Shown: positions 6,916 through 61,855 of the stretch, piece after piece
How positions within the stretch are numbered: position 1 is the first letter of the stretch
Layout: each line of letters starts with the position of its first letter
Assembly: GCA_964354285.1 (NCBI GenBank)
Contig: CAYGYR010000001.1
Coordinates: 262,424-326,423, forward strand
Origin: an uncultured Methanosarcinales archaeon
GTDB lineage: Archaea; Nanobdellota; Nanobdellia; Woesearchaeales; ARS49
Direction: 5' to 3'
Length of the DNA stretch: 64,000 bases
The notes under the pieces: model-generated
Told to the model about the DNA's origin: nothing
What the model saw: only the letters and a program-made list of their open reading frames with translations
Database searches by the model: none
Program-made: the position numbers and the translations under genes

Positions 6916-7050
6916 GTATATATCACCTCCAAGCGATATAATGTGTATAAGCAAGAACAAATTATATATTTTTGTCTTATACCTTATATATCACCTTATA
7001 ACTATATAAGAACAAAAAATTTATATATGCAATGACATATAAGGTATAAT

Positions 7051-7944
7051 ATGAAAAGAAAAGTAATACAGCTGGCGCACAAAACATTTGTTGTGAGCCT
7101 GCCCAGCAAGTGGGTAAAAAAACTTGGAATAAAAAAAGGGGATGAGCTTGAGGTTGATGACTCTGGAAAATCACTAAGCATAGCAACGCAAAGCAAAAGC
7201 AAGAGCACAGTCAGCATCCACCTAAATGGCCCTGAAGAGCTGATGCGAAGAAGGATAAACACAGCATACAAGCGTGGCTTTGACGAGCTCGAGCTAACTT
7301 ATGACGACCCAAAGGCAATAAAGGCAATACAGAAAGAGCTTGACCTGCTTCTAGGATATGAAATAGTAAAACACGGTGAGAAGCACTGCATAATCAAGTG
7401 CATAGCAAACACTTTAGAAGAAGAATATGACGTAATACTAAGAAGAATATTCCTCATGCTCCTGGAAATGGGAGAGGAAAGCCTCAAAGCAATAAAAAAC
7501 AAGGAATTTGACAGGCTGAATGAAATTGCCCTGCTAGAGCACACAAACGACAAGCTGACAAACTTCTGCAAAAGAGTGCTTAACAAAAACTGCAGCCAGA
7601 ACTCAATAATGCAATACTGCATAGTAAGAGAGCTTGAGCGCATTGCAGACTCTTATGCAAAAATCTGTACAAATATGCAGGAAAGCAAATTAAAAGCAAG
7701 CAGGGAAACAATTCTTTTCTATGAAAAAACAAATAATCTTGTGAGAGAGTTTTACGACTTATTTTATGATTTCAAAGAAGACAGGGCAGAAATATTCTCA
7801 AGGCACAGGGAAGAAATAAAAAAGCAAGGCAGCATCCTTACAAATGCAAAACCAAAAGAAGAGGCACTGCTCATACAAACAATATCAGGAATCGCATCGC
7901 AAGTAAACGCGGCAGCAGGGCCATTCTATGCAACGAAGCTATAA
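7051..7944 (+). CDS. Regulator with an AbrB/SpoVT-like swapped-hairpin N-terminus and a PhoU-like domain.
   Basis: The N-terminal KVIQLAHKTFVVSLPSKWVKKLGIKKGDELEV is AbrB/MazE-like. The C-terminal helical region resembles PhoU-family phosphate-uptake regulators. Confidence 0.55.
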   Translation: MKRKVIQLAHKTFVVSLPSKWVKKLGIKKGDELEVDDSGKSLSIATQSKSKSTVSIHLNGPEELMRRRINTAYKRGFDELELTYDDPKAIKAIQKELDLLLGYEIVKHGEKHCIIKCIANTLEEEYDVILRRIFLMLLEMGEESLKAIKNKEFDRLNEIALLEHTNDKLTNFCKRVLNKNCSQNSIMQYCIVRELERIADSYAKICTNMQESKLKASRETILFYEKTNNLVREFYDLFYDFKEDRAEIFSRHREEIKKQGSILTNAKPKEEALLIQTISGIASQVNAAAGPFYATKL

Positions 7945-53890: not shown

Positions 53891-54682
53891 TTACTTGCCT
53901 TTGGCCCAAAGCATGTTAAATATGTTCTCAAAAGCCTTTGCAAAGAACTCTGTATTCACCCAGACACCAAAATCATTGTTTTGGTTGGCGCTTTCATCAA
54001 GAGCCATTAAAGTCACGGCTTTGCTGTCAATAACACAAAACCTTGCCTTGACATCATCGACGTGCTTGATCTGGCCATATTTTGAGAGTGATGCTGCAGC
54101 ATCCTTGTTTGTTTTTGTCAGAGGCGCTGCAATTCTTATTCTAACGCCTTTAGCTTTAGCTTTATTAAGTGCATTTTTCAGAGCTTCCTCTTTCAGAAGA
54201 AGCGTTTTCTCTGTCGCAAGAATTAAAACACTTTTCTCTGCATTCTTTATAGCTGCACTGAGATGAGAATAAAGGTTTCCCCTGCCTTTTACTGCGCCAG
54301 TTATATCCATTGGATCAACAAGCTCCAGGCCTGTCGTATGGATTGTGTTTAATTCAGTAAGAATTTCTGAATCTTTAAGGTTATCGAGCAATTGTGACTG
54401 CTTTTCAGCATCATCCTGAACCACTTTTTTAACTCTTTCAAGAACTTCTACTGGAGGAACCGCAATGTATTTTATTGGCTTTCCCAGCTTCATAATAACA
54501 AAACCTTTTTTTTCAAGGCTCTCAAGAACATCATAACTCCTGCTCCTTGGAACATTAGCGATATCAGAAAGCTCGCCAGCTGTAGCAACACCCCTGGAAA
54601 GAAGTGCTGTCCATAACTTTGCTTCATAGCTATTTAAGCCAAAATCCTTAAGTTTGTTTAAAAAATCCTTTTGAACTAACAT
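53891..54682 (-). CDS. trmB: TrmB-family transcriptional regulator, a paralog of 32725..33528.
   Basis: Its wHTH is near-identical (ELSDIANVPRSRSYDVLESLEKKGFVIMKLGKPIKYIAV). Confidence 0.8.
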   Translation of the reverse strand: MLVQKDFLNKLKDFGLNSYEAKLWTALLSRGVATAGELSDIANVPRSRSYDVLESLEKKGFVIMKLGKPIKYIAVPPVEVLERVKKVVQDDAEKQSQLLDNLKDSEILTELNTIHTTGLELVDPMDITGAVKGRGNLYSHLSAAIKNAEKSVLILATEKTLLLKEEALKNALNKAKAKGVRIRIAAPLTKTNKDAAASLSKYGQIKHVDDVKARFCVIDSKAVTLMALDESANQNNDFGVWVNTEFFAKAFENIFNMLWAKGK

Positions 54683-54699
54683 TGAAAATCCCTCCGAAA

Positions 54700-55132
54700 T
54701 TGAGTTTTTACGTTTTTTGCGTTTGTTACCATTACACAGGTGTGAAAAGTATTTAAAGCTTTCTGTTTTAGGCGGCTTTTATGACCCTGAGACCATGATT
54801 TCGCATGGAAAAAAGAGATATCTTTGCTGTATGACTTGACGAGTTCACTTTAGTTTTTATATTATATATTATATTATATGCATTGGTTTTTATATATTAT
54901 ATTATATTATTTTTTATATAGAAAAATAATAATAAATAATAAATAAATAATAAATTAATATATAAAATTTGTCTTAACAGATTTTTAATACATAATACCA
55001 ACTACACAATCTAACATAATTGTTGCAGTTAATGCACAAGTATTGTTTTATGATTAGTTAAATTTCTATAAGAAATCAAGGGGTAGGGCCAAATGGAAAA
55101 ATATAAATACCTCCCTTTCGTTTGGAACTTTT
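54700..55132. other. Candidate chromosomal replication origin (oriC). It has an approximately 95% AT unwinding element with tatattatat-type tandem repeats (54850-54960), repeated TGGAAAAA / ORB-like elements, and an ORB-like ttccaaacgaaagggagg element on the minus strand at 55111-55130.
   Basis: It sits immediately upstream of orc1/cdc6, which is followed by polD small and large. That is the arrangement known for Pyrococcus oriC. The region contains mini-ORB-like GGAAA cores and an extreme AT tract. Confidence 0.5.
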
Positions 55133-56344
55133 ATGTCTGAAAGGGGGCTGGTGGATTATTTTGAAAAGTTCTTAACAAGGGAGCCATTGTTCAAAAATAA
55201 GTCTGCACTGCAGTCAGCATACTGCCCTGAAAAAATTTTTCACAGAGAAGACCAACTACAAGCAGTAGCAAACATCCTTGCTCCATGCTTAAGAGGGGAA
55301 AAGCCATCAAACCTTTTTATTTACGGCAAAACAGGCACAGGCAAAACACTCACAGCAAGATATGTTTCAAAGCAGTTGCAAGTCATAGCAGAGGAAAGAG
55401 AGCTTTTAATCAAGATAATTTACCTCAACTGCAAGCTGAAAAAAGTTGCTGACACAGAATACAGGCTAATTGCCCAGCTTGCAAGAGAGCTTGGCACACA
55501 GATTCCACCAACAGGCCTACCTACAGATGAAGTTTACAACATATTCTACAGGATTGTTGATAAAGAAAAAAATATAGTCATACTTATCCTTGATGAGATA
55601 GACCAGCTTGTCAGCAAAGCAGGAGATGAAATGCTTTACAATCTAACAAGGATAAACTCAGAACTTAAGCAGGCGCAGATATCTATTGTAGGAATATCAA
55701 ACGATCTCATTTTCACAGAAAATCTTGATCCTAGGGTCAAGAGCTCGCTTTCAGAAGAAGAACTTGTGTTTCCGCCATATAATGCACTGCAGATACAAAA
55801 CATACTCCAACAGAGGGCAAAAGAGGCATTCAAAGACGGCGTAATAGAGCAGGGAGTGATAGAAAAATGCGCTGCATATGCTGCCAGAGAGCACGGCGAT
55901 GCCAGAAGGGCACTTGAATTGTTAAGGGTTGCAGGAGAGCTTGCAGAAAGGCAGAATGAAACAAAAATCATGCTCAGCCACCTTGACAAAGCAGAAGAAA
56001 AAATCGAGAAAGACCGCGTGCTTGAAATGGTAATAACACAGCCAAAACAATACCAAGCAACACTATACTCAATTTACCTGATTTGCGAACAGAAGAAAAA
56101 ACTTATTTTTACAGGAGAAGTTTATGAGCTGTACAAGAAGATATGTGACAAGACAAATTTGAGGCCGCTAACACAAAGAAGGATTTCTGACATTATCTCA
56201 GAAATGGACATGTTAGGCATCATAAACGCAAAAGTTATCTCAAAAGGGCGCTACGGCAGGACACGGGAGATCAGCATCTCAACTCAAGAAGAACTCAATC
56301 CTAAAATCAAAAAAATACTTGAAGAACAGCTTGGTTTTGCCTAA
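55133..56344 (+). CDS. cdc6: Orc1/Cdc6 replication initiator.
   Basis: It has an AAA+ domain (GKTGTGKT; ILDEIDQL) and a C-terminal winged helix. Confidence 0.9.
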   Translation: MSERGLVDYFEKFLTREPLFKNKSALQSAYCPEKIFHREDQLQAVANILAPCLRGEKPSNLFIYGKTGTGKTLTARYVSKQLQVIAEERELLIKIIYLNCKLKKVADTEYRLIAQLARELGTQIPPTGLPTDEVYNIFYRIVDKEKNIVILILDEIDQLVSKAGDEMLYNLTRINSELKQAQISIVGISNDLIFTENLDPRVKSSLSEEELVFPPYNALQIQNILQQRAKEAFKDGVIEQGVIEKCAAYAAREHGDARRALELLRVAGELAERQNETKIMLSHLDKAEEKIEKDRVLEMVITQPKQYQATLYSIYLICEQKKKLIFTGEVYELYKKICDKTNLRPLTQRRISDIISEMDMLGIINAKVISKGRYGRTREISISTQEELNPKIKKILEEQLGFA

Positions 56345-56353
56345 GCTTCTAAA

Positions 56354-57826
56354 ATGCTCGAGCCACAGCAGAAAAAAAAAGAAATAGTATCATTTTTGTT
56401 AAAGAAAAAGGTACTTGTAACTCCATCTTTTCTTACAAAACTAGAAGACCTGGCAAGACTGGAGCAGCTGTATGCGCAATTGAGCCAGCCAAACGCAGAA
56501 CAGCTGCTTGCCGCTGAAGCAATCAACAGCAGTGCAGCTGACGGCGGCGAGCAAAAAAGCCAGTATCAGGTAAAAGTCCTGTGGGATTATAAAGAAAAAG
56601 AGAAAAAGCGCACAATGCAGGATTTCGTAAATTATTTTAATGCACGATATAAGCTGCTGGAAAAAATGCTGTCCGGCAGGCCAGAGCTTGAAAGCCTGAC
56701 ATCAATCGGAAGATTGGCAAATAAAAAAGACAGGGAAGCAGTGTCAGTCATAGGCATGGTCGGAAGCAGTCAGGTAACAGTCAACGGCAACATAATCATG
56801 AAAGTGGAAGATGCCACAGGGGAGATAAGCGTCTTCTTCAGCAAAAACAAGCAAGAGCTTTTTGAATCTGCAAAAGATGTAATGCTTGATGAAGTTATAG
56901 GCGTAACAGGGACAAGCGGCGACAAAATAATTTTTGCAAACAGCTTCGTTATTCCTGACATACCCATACAAACTGAACTGAAAAAAGCAAATGATGAAAC
57001 GTATGTGGCAATCCTGTCTGACACCCACGTTGGCTCATCATTCTTTCTTGAAGATGCATTTAGCAAATTCTTGAAGTGGATAAGGTGCGAGATAGGCAGT
57101 GACGAGCAGAAAGCAGTGGCGCAGAAGACGAAATACATCTTCATCCTAGGAGACCTAGTTGACGGTGTTGGCGTTTATCCTGGCATGGAACACGACCTTA
57201 AGGTGCTTGACGTCCGGGAGCAGTATAAGAAGTGTGCAGAGCTGCTGAAACAGATACCTGCGCATATTAAAATAATAATCTGCCCAGGAAACCACGATGT
57301 AGGCAGGATATCAGAACCGCAGTTAAAGCTATCTGAAGATTATGCAAAACCGATGTATGAGATTCCAAATGCCATAATGACATGCAACCCCGCTTTCGTA
57401 AACGTGCACGCCTCACAAGATTTTCCGGGGTTTAACTTTTTATTGTACCACGGCTATTCCTATGACTTCTATGCAGAAAATGTTCCATCAATTAAAAACA
57501 GCGGAAGGCACCTCTCAGACAGGACAGGCCTGATCATGAAATACATGCTCCAAAGAAGGCACCTTGCCCCAACGCACGCGACAACACTTTATATTCCTGA
57601 TGCGAAAACAGATCCATTAGTAATAGAAACAGTGCCTGACTTTTTTATTTCAGGCCATTTGCACAAATCTGTTGTCGCAACATACAGGGGCGTTACAATA
57701 ATCTGCGGGAGCTGCTGGCAGTCTCAGACCCCATTCCAGGAAAAAGTCGGGCATGTTGCAGAGCCAGGCAAAGTCCCCTTGATCAACCTAAAAACAAGAG
57801 AAGTAAAGCTAATGAATTTTGTGTGA
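56354..57826 (+). CDS. dp1: DNA polymerase II (PolD) small subunit DP1.
   Basis: It has a calcineurin-like phosphoesterase domain (ILGDLVDGVGVYPG; ICPGNHD) and an OB fold. Confidence 0.9.
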   Translation: MLEPQQKKKEIVSFLLKKKVLVTPSFLTKLEDLARLEQLYAQLSQPNAEQLLAAEAINSSAADGGEQKSQYQVKVLWDYKEKEKKRTMQDFVNYFNARYKLLEKMLSGRPELESLTSIGRLANKKDREAVSVIGMVGSSQVTVNGNIIMKVEDATGEISVFFSKNKQELFESAKDVMLDEVIGVTGTSGDKIIFANSFVIPDIPIQTELKKANDETYVAILSDTHVGSSFFLEDAFSKFLKWIRCEIGSDEQKAVAQKTKYIFILGDLVDGVGVYPGMEHDLKVLDVREQYKKCAELLKQIPAHIKIIICPGNHDVGRISEPQLKLSEDYAKPMYEIPNAIMTCNPAFVNVHASQDFPGFNFLLYHGYSYDFYAENVPSIKNSGRHLSDRTGLIMKYMLQRRHLAPTHATTLYIPDAKTDPLVIETVPDFFISGHLHKSVVATYRGVTIICGSCWQSQTPFQEKVGHVAEPGKVPLINLKTREVKLMNFV

Positions 57827-60800
57827 GAACATGATAGCAAGCCCAGAAATGCAACAGTACTTCAACCACATCAAGAGAAATGTCACTGCGTTATTCGGGC
57901 TTGCAACAAAAGCAAGAAAAAAAGGATATGATCCAGAGCAAAAAGTTGAGATAAGCCTCGCAGAGAACATGGCAGAGAGGGTTGTTGGCCTTATTTCTAT
58001 CATCGCTCCACAGCTAGTCAACAGCGGCGTAGTTGAAAGAATCATAGAGCTGGAAAAACAATACGGAGCCCTGGACTGGAGGGTTGCCCTGAAGATAGCA
58101 GAGGAGCTTGCGCAGGAGAAATTCTGCAAGTTCAAGGACCAAAAAGAGGCAATAAGCGTCGGCATAAGAGCAGGGTTTGCGTATGTAACGGTCGGCGTTG
58201 TTTCTTCACCGCTTGAGGGAATTGCAACAATTGACTTCAAGAAAAGAATGGATGGCCGCGGGGAGTACATGAGCCTCAGCTATGCAGGCCCAATACGAAA
58301 TGCAGGCGGAACAGCAGCAGCAGTCTCTATGCTTATCGCGGATTATATCAGAAAAAAATTCAAGTATGATGTCTATGACGCGCAAGAGATTGAAATCAAA
58401 AGAACATACACTGAAATGCAGGATTACAGGGACAGAGTTGCTCCGAGACAGTACTTTCCGGCTTATGGGGAAATAGAATTTATCATGAAAAACATCCCCA
58501 TAGAGGTTGCAGGAGAGCCCTCTGAAAAATTTGATGTATCAAACTACAAAGACCTTCCAAGAGTCCCAACAAACAAGATAAGAAGCGGGTTCTGCCTGAT
58601 GATGACAGAATGCATCCCTCTAAAGGCACCGAAGCTGTGGAAGCAGCTAAGCAAATGGGGAAAAGACATGGACATGGAGCAGTGGAATTTCCTTGATGAA
58701 TTCCTGAAGATACAGAAAGAAGCCAAGGCAAAAGGAGAGGGCCAAAAAACAGAACAAAAATCAGGTGAAAAAATAAAGCCTGACTACAGCTTTATCCACG
58801 ACATCGTTGCAGGGAGGCCAGTATTCACGCACCCTCTCAGGGCAGGAGGATTCAGGTTAAGATACGGCAGGTGCAGAACATCAGGATATTCTTCTTGCGC
58901 AGTGCATCCTGCAACAATGGCTGTAACAAACGAATACCTTGCAACAGGAACCCAGCTAAAACTTGAAAGGCCAATGAAGGGAACCGCAATAACATCCTGC
59001 AACACAATCGAGGGGCCGATAGTCAAGCTGAATGACGGGTCTGTTATCTTGCTTGAGAGCAGGCAGAAAGCAAAAGAGTGCGTCAATGACATAAAAGAGA
59101 TTCTTTTCTTAGGGGATCTTCTTGTCAATTATGGGGATTTCCTCGACAGGGCGTACATCCTCGTTCCAGCAGGGTACTGCCAGGAGTGGTGGATACAAGA
59201 GCTAGAGAAAGCAACTGTCGGCCTTTTCGGAACAATAGATTTTGAAAAACTTTCAGAACACACAGAGATACCTGCGAAGATACTGGAAACCTTATTTGAG
59301 AACCCGCTTGCAACAAAAATCAGCGCAACCTATGCAATAAGCATCTCAAAAAAACTCTCAATACCCCTGCACCCAAGCTATACATACCACTGGAAGACCA
59401 TTTCAGTCGAGCAGCTAAAAGACCTTGTAGATTGGTTCAGCAAGCTAAGCATTACAAAAGATAAGAATAATGAAATTGAAAAGATGATACTTCCGCTTGA
59501 GGAAAAGCCAAAAAGAGTGCTTGAATTGCTCGGGGTTCCGCACCAAGTTGCCACGAATGAATTCGTGATACTCGATAAAAATAGTTCATACGGGCTCATC
59601 GCAACACTTGATCTGGACAACAAAGAAATCGCTGATATCAAACAAGTCATTGAGCTGAACAACGGCAAAAATGCCCTTGACATAATCAACGCAATATCAA
59701 AAATAAAGGTGCGGGACAAGTCAGGAACCTTTATTGGCTCAAGAATGGGCAGGCCTGAGAAAGCAAAGATGAGAAAGTTAACAGGGAGCCCGCAAGTTCT
59801 TTTTCCAGTCGGAGAACAAGGGGGAAAATTCAGGTGCTTCCAGAGCGCCCTTGAAACAGGAGCAATAAATGCAGACTTCCCAAAATATTACTGCTCAAAG
59901 TGCAAGAAAGAAACAATCTTTGGCGCGTGCGAAGAGTGCGGGCATATAACATCACGCCAGCATTACTGCAAGACCTGTAAGCAATGGATGCCTGAACCGA
60001 CGTGCAAGGCCCATGGTGAATGCCAGGGGTATGAAAAAAGAAATATTGACATAAAGAAATACTTTGAATACTGCCTCGGAAAACTCGGAATGAAGACATA
60101 TCCTGACTTGATAAAAGGCGTGAGGGGAACAAGCAACAAAGACCATACCCCAGAATACCTTGCAAAAGGAATACTCAGAGCAAAACATAGCGTATGCGTG
60201 AACAAGGACGGCACAGTAAGGTATGATATGACCCAGCTGCCCATAACACACTTCAAGCCAGTCGAGATCGGAACGCCTGTTGAAAAGCTAAAAGAACTCG
60301 GCTACGCAAAAGACATCCACGGAAAGGAGATTGCAGACGAAAATCAGGTGCTTGAGATACTTCCGCAAGACATAATACTTCCAAACTGCGATCAGTCCCC
60401 TGATGAAGGCGCAGGCGCAGTGCTCTGCAGAGTTGCAAATTTGATTGATGACATGCTCGTCAGCCTTTACGGCCTTCCGCCATTCTATAAGCTCAAAAGC
60501 GAAAACGACCTTGTTGGCAATCTTGTTGTCGTCCTTGCTCCACACACCTCTGCAGGAATGGCAGGAAGAATCATCGGCTTTTCAAAAACACAAGGATTAT
60601 TTGCGCACCCATATATCCACGCCGCAACAAGAAGGGATTGTGACGGTGACGAGGCATGCGTCATACTCATGCTCGATGCCTTCCTTAACTTCTCACGAAG
60701 ATACCTTCCGAACACGAGAGGAGCGACCATGGACGCGCCGCTCGTTTTAACATCGGTGCTGCTTCCTGCAGAAGTAGACGACATGGCATTCCACCTGGAT

Positions 60801-61385
60801 ATTGTGTGGAGGTACCCGCTGCAGTTTTACGAGGCAGCGCTTGAGTTCAAAAATCCGTGGGATATCAAAGTAAAAACAATTACAGATGTTCTCAACACCC
60901 CAGAGCAATACCAAGGAATGGGCTTCACCCATGACTTTGACAATATGAACAACACAGTAAGATGCTCTGCATACAAAACTCTGCCCAGCATGGATGAGAA
61001 GCTCCAGGGGCAGATGCTTCTTGCAGAAAGGATAAGGGCAGTTGATACTAGTGATGTCGCAAGGCTAGTGATAGAGAAGCATTTCCTTAAAGACACAAAA
61101 GGAAACCTGAGAAAATTCTCGATGCAGTCCTTCCGCTGTGTGAATTGCAATGAAATCTTTAGGCGGCCTCCGCTTGTTGGGAAATGCACAAAATGCAACG
61201 GAAAAATAATATTCACGATATCAGAAGGATGCATAATTAAATATCTCGAATCAACTGTAAAGCTTGCAAAGAAATACAATGTCTCACCGTATTTGCAGCA
61301 AAGCATAGAGCTTCTTCAGAAAAGGATAGAAGGCGTTTTTGGCAAGGAAAAAGAAAAACAGGCAGGACTATCAACTTTCATGTAA
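57819..61385 (+). CDS. dp2: DNA polymerase II (PolD) large subunit DP2. It overlaps dp1 by 8 nt.
   Basis: It is 1188 aa with a catalytic RRDCDGDEA motif and zinc-binding Cys clusters. No intein is apparent. Confidence 0.9.
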   Translation: MCENMIASPEMQQYFNHIKRNVTALFGLATKARKKGYDPEQKVEISLAENMAERVVGLISIIAPQLVNSGVVERIIELEKQYGALDWRVALKIAEELAQEKFCKFKDQKEAISVGIRAGFAYVTVGVVSSPLEGIATIDFKKRMDGRGEYMSLSYAGPIRNAGGTAAAVSMLIADYIRKKFKYDVYDAQEIEIKRTYTEMQDYRDRVAPRQYFPAYGEIEFIMKNIPIEVAGEPSEKFDVSNYKDLPRVPTNKIRSGFCLMMTECIPLKAPKLWKQLSKWGKDMDMEQWNFLDEFLKIQKEAKAKGEGQKTEQKSGEKIKPDYSFIHDIVAGRPVFTHPLRAGGFRLRYGRCRTSGYSSCAVHPATMAVTNEYLATGTQLKLERPMKGTAITSCNTIEGPIVKLNDGSVILLESRQKAKECVNDIKEILFLGDLLVNYGDFLDRAYILVPAGYCQEWWIQELEKATVGLFGTIDFEKLSEHTEIPAKILETLFENPLATKISATYAISISKKLSIPLHPSYTYHWKTISVEQLKDLVDWFSKLSITKDKNNEIEKMILPLEEKPKRVLELLGVPHQVATNEFVILDKNSSYGLIATLDLDNKEIADIKQVIELNNGKNALDIINAISKIKVRDKSGTFIGSRMGRPEKAKMRKLTGSPQVLFPVGEQGGKFRCFQSALETGAINADFPKYYCSKCKKETIFGACEECGHITSRQHYCKTCKQWMPEPTCKAHGECQGYEKRNIDIKKYFEYCLGKLGMKTYPDLIKGVRGTSNKDHTPEYLAKGILRAKHSVCVNKDGTVRYDMTQLPITHFKPVEIGTPVEKLKELGYAKDIHGKEIADENQVLEILPQDIILPNCDQSPDEGAGAVLCRVANLIDDMLVSLYGLPPFYKLKSENDLVGNLVVVLAPHTSAGMAGRIIGFSKTQGLFAHPYIHAATRRDCDGDEACVILMLDAFLNFSRRYLPNTRGATMDAPLVLTSVLLPAEVDDMAFHLDIVWRYPLQFYEAALEFKNPWDIKVKTITDVLNTPEQYQGMGFTHDFDNMNNTVRCSAYKTLPSMDEKLQGQMLLAERIRAVDTSDVARLVIEKHFLKDTKGNLRKFSMQSFRCVNCNEIFRRPPLVGKCTKCNGKIIFTISEGCIIKYLESTVKLAKKYNVSPYLQQSIELLQKRIEGVFGKEKEKQAGLSTFM

Positions 61386-61447: not shown

Positions 61448-61855
61448 TTAAATCTTGCTTTTTACTGATTTTTTGGCACCACACGCAGTGCATTTAAGAA
61501 ATGTAAATTCTCCTTCCTTAACAAGCTCTGTATCAGGCTTTCCACACTCATAACAGAGTACAAACTCATACGCATATTGCTTTATTTTCTCGTTAATTCT
61601 TGATGCATTAATCTTTGATCCAATAACGAGCAAATCCCTTCTTACCTCGCCAGGTGCCGCAAGCTCTCGCAAGATATATTTTAGCAAATGCTCAGGCTGC
61701 CTTCTTAGCGTGCTTGCAATCTGCAAAAAGTTGCTTATGACTGTTTTATTGCCTTCCAGATGCCCCTTAACTTTGGGTATCTCAAAGCGCTCCTTCTCAA
61801 AAACAGCTTCTGGCATGTGCTGCCTTGCACGCTTGAGCATTTCTTGATATTCCAT
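61448..61855 (-). CDS. Translation initiation factor aIF2 beta subunit.
   Basis: It has a C4 zinc ribbon CYECGKPDT...CTACGAKK and an eIF2beta/eIF5 core. Confidence 0.8.
   Translation of the reverse strand: MEYQEMLKRARQHMPEAVFEKERFEIPKVKGHLEGNKTVISNFLQIASTLRRQPEHLLKYILRELAAPGEVRRDLLVIGSKINASRINEKIKQYAYEFVLCYECGKPDTELVKEGEFTFLKCTACGAKKSVKSKI

Follow-up and report, generated by a model that had tools for sequence, protein, structure and literature searches.

Genes and promoters around the intergenic gap

The stretch of DNA analysed here (64,000 nucleotides, referred to below as the window) carries an orc1/cdc6 gene followed on the same strand by the two PolD genes. Upstream of this group, a gap of 450 bp separates orc1/cdc6 from a divergent regulator gene.

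53891-54682, minus strand: gene of an HTH regulator of the TrmB type whose C-terminal part is weakly PLD-like, forming the left boundary of the candidate origin
54683-55132: intergenic gap of 450 bp, candidate oriC, between the divergent TrmB-like gene and orc1/cdc6-DP1-DP2
55133-56344, plus strand: orc1/cdc6 initiator gene (403 aa; Pfam Cdc6_C, Cdc6_lid and AAA domains)
56354-57826, plus strand: PolD gene DP1, codirectional with cdc6 (Pfam)
57819-61385, plus strand: PolD gene DP2, codirectional with cdc6 (Pfam)

The product of the TrmB-like gene matches the TrmB family of Pfam with an E value of 3.4e-21, the PLDc_2 match being below cut-off. For comparison, 16 Cdc6 homologues were aligned and 80 loci were collected from species-representative genomes, mostly labelled Woesearchaeota or Nanoarchaeota, in which Cdc6 is 63-76% identical to that of the window. 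The presence of cdc6, dp1 and dp2 downstream of the gap, already pointed out in the preliminary description, is borne out by the Pfam assignments; the genes are on one strand and their order is of the Pyrococcus type. Both order and strand are kept in the related loci, with DP1 found in 72 and DP2 in 71 of 73 eligible loci. The TrmB-like gene is found less regularly, an ortholog being the divergent left neighbour at 33 of the 50 eligible loci. Genes for TFE-alpha, an IF-2B-family protein and aIF-2-beta were identified close by with Pfam, which argues for a location in the core chromosome and not in a mobile element. No Rfam family and no tRNA was found in the gap or in the 64-kb window.

The closest named homologues of the window Cdc6 are annotated as Candidatus Woesearchaeota, and a protein identical to it is recorded on a contig of 585 kb. 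Among the solved structures, the best scores were obtained with S. solfataricus Orc1-1 (2qby_A, 1e-106) and A. pernix ORC1 (2v1u_A, 9e-105), as compared with 3e-48 for Orc1-3 and 5e-19 for the ORC2-type paralogues. As judged from sequence similarity, the window Cdc6 is of the Orc1-1 class, like the ORB-binding initiators for which DNA complexes have been solved.

Predicted promoter elements of both flanking genes lie in the gap.

54690-54695, minus strand: ribosome-binding site GGAGGG of the TrmB-like gene, from the sequence
54750-54757, minus strand: predicted TATA box TTTAAATA of the TrmB-like gene
55094-55109, plus strand: predicted cdc6 promoter, composed of a BRE-like A-rich TGGAAAAA and the TATA box TATAAATA (55102-55109)

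On the TrmB-like side, the block TTTAWAAAGCTTTCT is kept in all six relatives with upstream DNA, and archaeal promoter geometry suggests that 54750-54757 would serve as a promoter element. On the cdc6 side, TATAAATACC is invariant in seven aligned sequences. There, the centre of the TATA box is located about 27 nt before the ATG, the standard archaeal spacing between TATA box and start of transcription. Thus, the cdc6 mRNA would be leaderless.

The gap was aligned with that of relatives whose Cdc6 is 97%, 90% or about 75% identical, and the spacers were seen to diverge or to be deleted. In the same alignment, both promoters, the three origin recognition boxes described below and the centre of the AT-rich tract stay conserved.

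Origin recognition boxes and the AT-rich tract

An unbiased k-mer enrichment, comparing upstream regions with coding controls, recovered TCCATAGGAAA, GAAATCAAGG and AAGGGGTG, which by their sequence are parts of the classical origin recognition box (ORB). A 29-nt ORB weight matrix was then derived from the 80 related loci, the window being left out. When both strands of the 64-kb window were scanned with this matrix, three matches scored above 23 bits, all of them in the gap, and the fourth best reached 13.0 bits. The maximum was 19.9 bits in 100 composition-preserving shuffles of the window and 14.4 bits in 2000 shuffles of the gap. These three boxes and the AT-rich tract are positioned as follows.

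54785-54813, minus strand: ORB-L, TTTTTCCATGCGAAATCATGGTCTCAGGG (core 54793-54810), 24.6 bits, exact match to the IUPAC consensus
54853-54970: predicted AT-rich duplex unwinding element (DUE), from AT content, in two blocks (54853-54878 and 54887-54970)
55061-55089, plus strand: ORB-R, AATTTCTATAAGAAATCAAGGGGTAGGGC (core 55063-55084), 29.4 bits, the best match of the window
55102-55130, minus strand: ORB-P, promoter-proximal, AAGTTCCAAACGAAAGGGAGGTATTTATA (core 55110-55127), 23.5 bits

ORB-L and ORB-R are inverted and 247 bp apart, with the AT tract between them. Both have their TTCCA end turned toward the tract and their G-string distal to it, and both appear as conserved blocks in the alignment. 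ORB-P is nearly invariant in the relatives. Its 3′ end overlaps the TATA box of cdc6, and the cdc6 start (55133) lies 3 nt past the box.

The counts in the related loci are partly circular, the matrix having been trained on those loci, whereas the result in the window is not; with this reservation, a minus-strand ORB is found to the left of the AT tract in 52/56 loci, a plus-strand ORB to its right in 56/56 and a minus-strand ORB on the cdc6 side in 41/56, in most cases about 27-34 nt before the cdc6 start. Under the same reservation, the inverted pair surrounds the AT tract in 52/56 loci and the full layout, ORB(-), AT tract, ORB(+), ORB(-), is present in 36/56 (window included in both counts), genomes at 55-59% GC being no exception, and ORBs in the 56 loci occur at 2.79 per kb over the 1 kb preceding cdc6 versus 0.015 per kb elsewhere. 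ORB-like repeats are therefore conserved in the relatives.

Both a mini-ORB core and a G-string are recognizable in the clade consensus, TTCCAyAnGAAAynAAGGkGT. The euryarchaeal consensus from the literature, GTTCCAGTGGAAAC-AAA----GGGGG (PMC1868953), has the TTCCA...GAAA core and the G-string in common with it, but the spacer is shorter in the clade. The window boxes agree with the classical 14-nt core at only 8-10 positions. The promoter-proximal boxes form a class of their own, with the consensus TTCCAnAnGAAAnrrAGGTwTwTAww, in which the TATA box of cdc6 is fused to the 3′ end.

The preliminary description had assigned ORB-like character to two kinds of elements. The first, ttccaaacgaaagggagg on the minus strand, corresponds to the core of ORB-P (55110-55127), whose score of 23.5 bits exceeds the shuffle maximum of 19.9, and this assignment stands. 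The second, a set of three TGGAAAAA-type elements, does not constitute a motif: the sequence is exact only at 54806 and 55094, and near 54750 it reads TGTGAAAAG. Moreover, TGGAAAAA is not enriched, with 13 matches in the window as against 8.4 +/- 3.0 expected. These copies are not ORBs; each is explained as promoter or ORB-flank sequence. The copy at 54806 is the reverse complement of the 5′ flank of ORB-L, that at 55094 is the A-rich stretch directly preceding the TATA box of cdc6, and the element near 54750 is the predicted TATA box of the TrmB-like gene. The best box, ORB-R, as well as ORB-L, had been missed.

A stretch of about 110 bp with about 95% AT, made of short repeats, had also been noted in the gap, and it is recovered here as the maximum of the window. 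The 100 bp at 54858-54957 are 95% AT, the next highest 100-bp value being 82% and the mean of the window 57.5%. Within the tract, the 84 bp at 54887-54970 reach 98.8% AT. Short-period repeats of 5, 7 and 11 nt are present. On the plus strand, the left half of the tract is T-rich and the right half A-rich, and this T-to-A switch is the stronger switch between the inverted ORBs in 37/52 loci. It may be proposed that the T-rich strand on each side of the tract centre would serve as the leading-strand template. Orc1 of A. pernix favours T-rich single strands (PMC8287685).

The position of the tract was compared in about 55 related loci with enough upstream DNA. In nearly all of them, the most AT-rich 100 bp of the locus, about 13 kb in length, are found 170-800 bp upstream of cdc6. 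In related genomes at 55-59% GC, the upstream tract is still 87-92% A+T. Such a tract is therefore maintained by selection; base composition does not account for it. Elsewhere in the window, the segment 6957-7056 (82% AT) was considered as a second origin and rejected; it has no ORBs and corresponds to an ordinary divergent promoter.

Interpretation of the gap as a replication origin

Archaeal origins contain an AT-rich DUE with flanking ORBs (PMC5333045). The sequence components of an ORB-DUE-ORB oriC are found at the gap: an adjoining orc1/cdc6 gene, a predicted DUE, repeated ORBs, their inversion and their conservation. With its Orc1-1 initiator, its AT tract, its inverted ORBs and its synteny, the locus therefore fits the archaeal oriC family in every sequence feature tested other than nucleotide skew. 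Thus, the region 54683-55132 very likely represents the origin from which the chromosome of a small Woesearchaeal archaeon (DPANN/Nanobdellota) is replicated; it would be of the oriC1 type, with linkage to orc1/cdc6, and would function as such in vivo. The oriC reading of the preliminary description is hence supported, with an initiator now placed in the Orc1-1 class, a conserved AT tract, inverted ORBs confined to the gap and a conserved gene order.

The closest parallel in architecture is oriC1 of Sulfolobus (Saccharolobus). In both cases, the origin is directly upstream of an Orc1-1-class gene, inverted ORBs surround an AT-rich DUE, a third ORB is found on the gene side and a short conserved motif is located roughly midway between the inverted ORBs. 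The window Cdc6 is also most similar to Sso Orc1-1. The DUE of Sulfolobus oriC1 lies between ORB2 and ORB3, which are inverted; an Orc1-1 monomer binds to each of them with a defined polarity, and neither box can be dispensed with in vivo (PMC12141716). ATP-bound Orc1-1 alone is enough for the recruitment of MCM (PMC12141716). Unlike the third ORB of Sulfolobus oriC1, that of the window overlaps the TATA box of cdc6.

By analogy with Sulfolobus oriC1, Aeropyrum and Pyrococcus, initiation at the gap may be envisaged as follows. Orc1/Cdc6 monomers would bind each ORB with a defined polarity. ATP-bound Orc1/Cdc6 would then recruit MCM hexamers onto the AT-rich DNA between the ORBs, this DNA would melt and two forks would leave in opposite directions. 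The overlap of ORB-P with the promoter further suggests an autoregulation of cdc6. Orc1/Cdc6 bound at ORB-P would cover the region from the TATA box to the start and would so repress its own, probably leaderless, transcript.

In gene order, the locus resembles the origin of Thermococcales. In Pyrococcus, an operon of orc1/cdc6, DP1 and DP2 is preceded by oriC (PMC10989965; PMC2643942). The order oriC-cdc6-DP1-DP2 is common to both, as are ORBs in which a mini-ORB core is combined with a G-string (PMC1868953). However, the ORB sequence of the window clade (TTCCAyAnGAAAy) differs from that of Pyrococcus (TTCCAGTGGAAAC), with a shorter spacer before the G-string, and the upstream neighbour is a TrmB-like regulator in the window but radA in Thermococcales (PMC11005403). 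As compared with Pyrococcus, neither RFC genes nor ORB copies inside DP1 were found in the window. A likeness to oriC1 of Haloferax volcanii may also be noted, with a gap between divergent genes including orc1, an AT-rich DUE amid ORBs and DP1 nearby (PMC1868953). In contrast, haloarchaeal origins have many ORBs, with extended G-strings specific to halophiles, and a haloarchaeal genome has several origins and several orc paralogues, whereas the window has three ORBs and the initiator is reported as single-copy for the phylum. The latter information comes from a preprint of 2026 dealing with 208 closed genomes of Nanobdellota, in which ORC1/Cdc6 is used only as a rotation marker.

GC skew does not contribute to this interpretation. 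The cumulative GC skew of the window has a local minimum near 54-55 kb. This minimum arises because cdc6-DP1-DP2 are on the plus strand, and it is gone once the coding strand is modelled. Third-position skew was regressed on the coding strand and on the side of the origin. In the window, of which only 9 kb lie to the right of the site, the side effect on GC3 is not significant (t=-0.8). It is absent when 422 genes of 51 related loci are pooled (t=-1.4); in the same 51 loci, AT3 shows a weak side shift (t=3.3). GC skew as a mark of the origin is thus uninformative both in the window and over the 51 loci. Genes tend to point away from the site, with 146 on the minus and 84 on the plus strand to its left, and 154 on the plus and 38 on the minus strand to its right, the polarity on the right being dominated by the conserved cdc6-DP1-DP2 operon. 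This divergence of genes and the weak AT3 shift speak for an origin at the site, and the lack of a GC switch speaks against it.

Another reading of the gap would be that it contains only a divergent promoter and operator. Orc1/Cdc6 would act at the three boxes as a transcription factor for its own gene and for the TrmB-like gene. The AT tract would then represent a spacer within promoter DNA, and replication would be initiated at another site or through recombination. Indeed, the gap contains the conserved TATA boxes of both flanking genes; the promoter of cdc6 is overlapped by ORB-P, and ORB-L is found just upstream of the promoter of the TrmB-like gene. No skew switch was detected in the window or in the pooled loci, and replication independent of origins exists in Thermococcales (PMC11005403). 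However, 84-120 bp of 95-99% A+T are more than a promoter requires, and such a tract would not be expected to persist in genomes at 55-59% GC. The other AT-rich divergent promoter of the window (6957-7056, 82% AT) is without ORBs. Moreover, an inverted ORB pair around an AT tract is the very element that is essential for firing in Sulfolobus (PMC12141716). Finally, regulation and origin function are not mutually exclusive. A role of the gap in transcription alone is therefore unlikely.

It may also be imagined that the gap contains an origin of canonical appearance which is dormant or seldom fires, replication being mostly initiated at an unlinked site elsewhere. Dormant cdc6-linked origins are documented in haloarchaea (PMC4595724). 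In Thermococcales, the use of oriC varies with growth phase and the canonical oriC is little used under some conditions (PMC11005403). In addition, the present view is limited to 64 kb of the genome. Against such dormancy, ORC1/Cdc6 was reported to be single-copy in Nanobdellota (2026 preprint), strong purifying selection acts on all the cis elements in loci with Cdc6 proteins 63-76% identical, and no other ORB cluster is present in the 64-kb window. A dormant origin thus appears very improbable.

The view that the gap is low-complexity sequence, was misassembled or resembles an origin by chance is effectively refuted. AT-rich simple repeats are admittedly hard to assemble, and among the 80 related contigs, 21 break off no more than 320 bp upstream of cdc6, but a separate Logan contig (run ERR3804374, the relation of its sample to the window not being established) carries the whole 450-bp gap exactly, the 97% relatives are near-identical in sequence and the ORB scores are never reached in shuffles.

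The interpretation of the gap as an origin would account for the many MAG contigs that break just upstream of cdc6. In the searchable literature, DPANN origins are presumed from the location of orc1/cdc6 instead of being described, and no paper was found on ORBs or on a DUE for DPANN or Woesearchaeota. The locus and its about 55 relatives provide a testable map of cis elements for Woesearchaeota, including an ORB consensus, the polarity of the boxes, a promoter-overlapping ORB and the palindrome described below. This map can be used to anchor closed genomes at the true origin instead of at the start of a gene.

A palindrome at the centre of the AT-rich tract

The design of the probable origin is that of an ordinary archaeal one. 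One feature goes beyond expectation, namely a palindrome in the middle of the DUE.

54910-54926, centre between 54917 and 54918: near-palindrome TTTTTTATATAGAAAAA, a copy of the clade consensus

The clade consensus of this element is TTTATTTTCTAT|ATAGAAAATAAA, and the conserved palindrome reads TTTTCTAT|ATAGAAAA. In the related loci, the palindrome is found at the T-to-A switch, its median distance being 111 bp to ORB-L and 123 bp to ORB-R. In the window, the 84-bp core of the AT tract consists of A and T with the sole exception of the G of TTTTTTATATAGAAAAA, and ATATAGAAAA has a single copy in the 64 kb, at the palindrome. The element is invariant in the 90-97% relatives.

Its enrichment was evaluated in the spacers between the inverted ORBs. 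There, ATATAGAAA is present in 37 spacers out of 52, when shuffles lead to an expectation of 1.6. For the forms CTATATAG and TCTATATAGA, the corresponding figures are 22/52 (expected, 0.22) and 18/52 (expected, 0.06). In addition, 22 copies of CTATATAG occur in 13.9 kb of spacers versus 7 in 582 kb outside of them. Metagenome contigs were also scanned for the 16-mer TTTTCTATATAGAAAA. Out of the 80 stretches examined, among at least 120 that match, 4 are Woesearchaeal origins carrying Cdc6 and ORBs, and therefore this 16-mer alone is not diagnostic outside the clade. The other matches look like chance AT-rich sequence.

The TrmB-like regulator was considered as a possible binder of the palindrome. 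Since the presence of the palindrome does not track that of the gene (25/34 loci with the gene versus 12/18 without it), this regulator was rejected. With respect to secondary structure, a hairpin predicted over 54885-54950 (-9 kcal/mol, z=-1.85) is modestly more stable than in shuffles. Given this modest hairpin potential, a cruciform is neither supported nor excluded.

In Sulfolobus, a short motif called ucm lies midway between ORB2 and ORB3; it is essential for firing and is bound by UBP (PMC12141716). UBP contacts MCM and was reported to be restricted to Sulfolobales and Desulfurococcales, the authors asking whether analogues exist elsewhere (PMC12141716). The two central motifs are nevertheless different. 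The ucm motif (probe ATTATACAAAAG) is asymmetric and bound by a UBP monomer, whereas that of the window is palindromic. Furthermore, ucm has more than 300 genomic sites, whereas the palindrome is concentrated at the origin. When ucm (ATTATACAAAAG) itself was searched for in the gap, the best matches had 3 mismatches in 12 and were in generic AT repeats.

By analogy with ucm, the palindrome would most likely be either the binding site of an additional factor or a preferred point for melting and for the juxtaposition of helicases. More specifically, it is conceivable, though this can be put forward only tentatively, that a dedicated and probably dimeric origin factor of Woesearchaeota/Nanobdellota would bind there, between two MCM hexamers recruited by the ORBs. 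The literature that was searched gave no description of such a central palindrome. If this tentative view were true, the palindrome and its factor would represent a non-homologous functional counterpart of the ucm/UBP module of Sulfolobus. A third cis element with an accessory protein would then be recurrent in archaeal origins and not a crenarchaeal peculiarity. The palindrome is a candidate answer to the question raised in 2025 with ucm and UBP, concerning extra essential origin motifs in other lineages.

Promoter-proximal ORB and expression of orc1/cdc6

The origin recognition box (ORB) closest to orc1/cdc6 merges with the promoter of that gene:

55102-55130, minus strand: promoter-proximal ORB, its 3' end common with the cdc6 TATA box (55102-55109, plus strand).

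Among the related Woesearchaeota and Nanoarchaeota cdc6 loci (given L numbers below), the distance from this overlap to the ATG is fixed in most cases. This layout suggests autorepression, in which Orc1/Cdc6 would repress its own transcript through exclusion of TBP. The cdc6 transcript is probably leaderless.

A palindrome within the AT tract and strand asymmetry

A conserved element is found midway along the AT tract, where the T-rich part turns A-rich:

54910-54926: palindrome, consensus TTTATTTTCTAT|ATAGAAAATAAA.

The same palindrome sits between the inverted ORBs of each locus concerned (within L004-L080); it is carried by 37 of 52 loci, with strong origin specificity within these loci. 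Its position is similar to that of the ucm motif of Sulfolobus, whereas the two sequences are unlike.

Nucleotide skew was considered on pooled related loci, over 6 kb on either side of the origin and with correction for the coding strand. Third-codon-position AT skew changes across the origin (t=3.3), whereas GC skew does not shift (t=-1.4). Should this hold genome-wide, the usable replication-strand signal in this clade may be AT skew and not GC skew.

Another AT-rich region of the window offers a comparison:

6957-7056: second most AT-rich spot (82% A+T), a divergent promoter region preceding a small AbrB/SpoVT-like gene (7051-7944, plus strand).

No ORB matches were found at this spot, and it can serve well as a negative control within the window.

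Neighbouring genes and database records

Two genes of the neighbourhood lie on the minus strand:

53891-54682, minus strand: TrmB-type HTH protein, whose C-terminal part resembles PLD below the threshold; there is also a weak DUF7436 match.
61448-61855, minus strand: aIF-2-beta gene, convergent, directly past DP2.

In 33 of the 50 eligible related loci, a TrmB-type HTH gene flanks the origin in divergent orientation; its presence is not correlated with that of the mid-tract palindrome. A convergent aIF-2-beta gene past DP2 also occurs in 33 related loci (L003-L035 and others), about 6.3-7.2 kb downstream of the cdc6 start. Linkage of replication genes with aIF-2 subunits was noted earlier in other archaea (PMC2643942).

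Of the 80 related contigs, 21 terminate no more than 320 bp before cdc6, either at the AT tract or inside it (L009, L011, L014, L019-L021, L024, L027, L032, L036, L037, L043, L050, L053, L056, L060, L061, L065, L066, L068, L079). The origin seems to be a systematic break point of MAG assemblies in this clade, probably owing to low coverage or low complexity in almost pure A+T.

Numerous third-party MAG records with the title 'uncultured Methanosarcinales archaeon' (L005-L007, L016-L018, L022, L032, L035, L036, L038, L041, L042, L045, L047, L051, L054, L055, L066, L070, L072, L076) have a cdc6 of Woesearchaeal type (63-69% identity) and an origin layout matching that of the window, with GC contents down to 26%. 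The 'Methanosarcinales' organism labels on these records look wrong.
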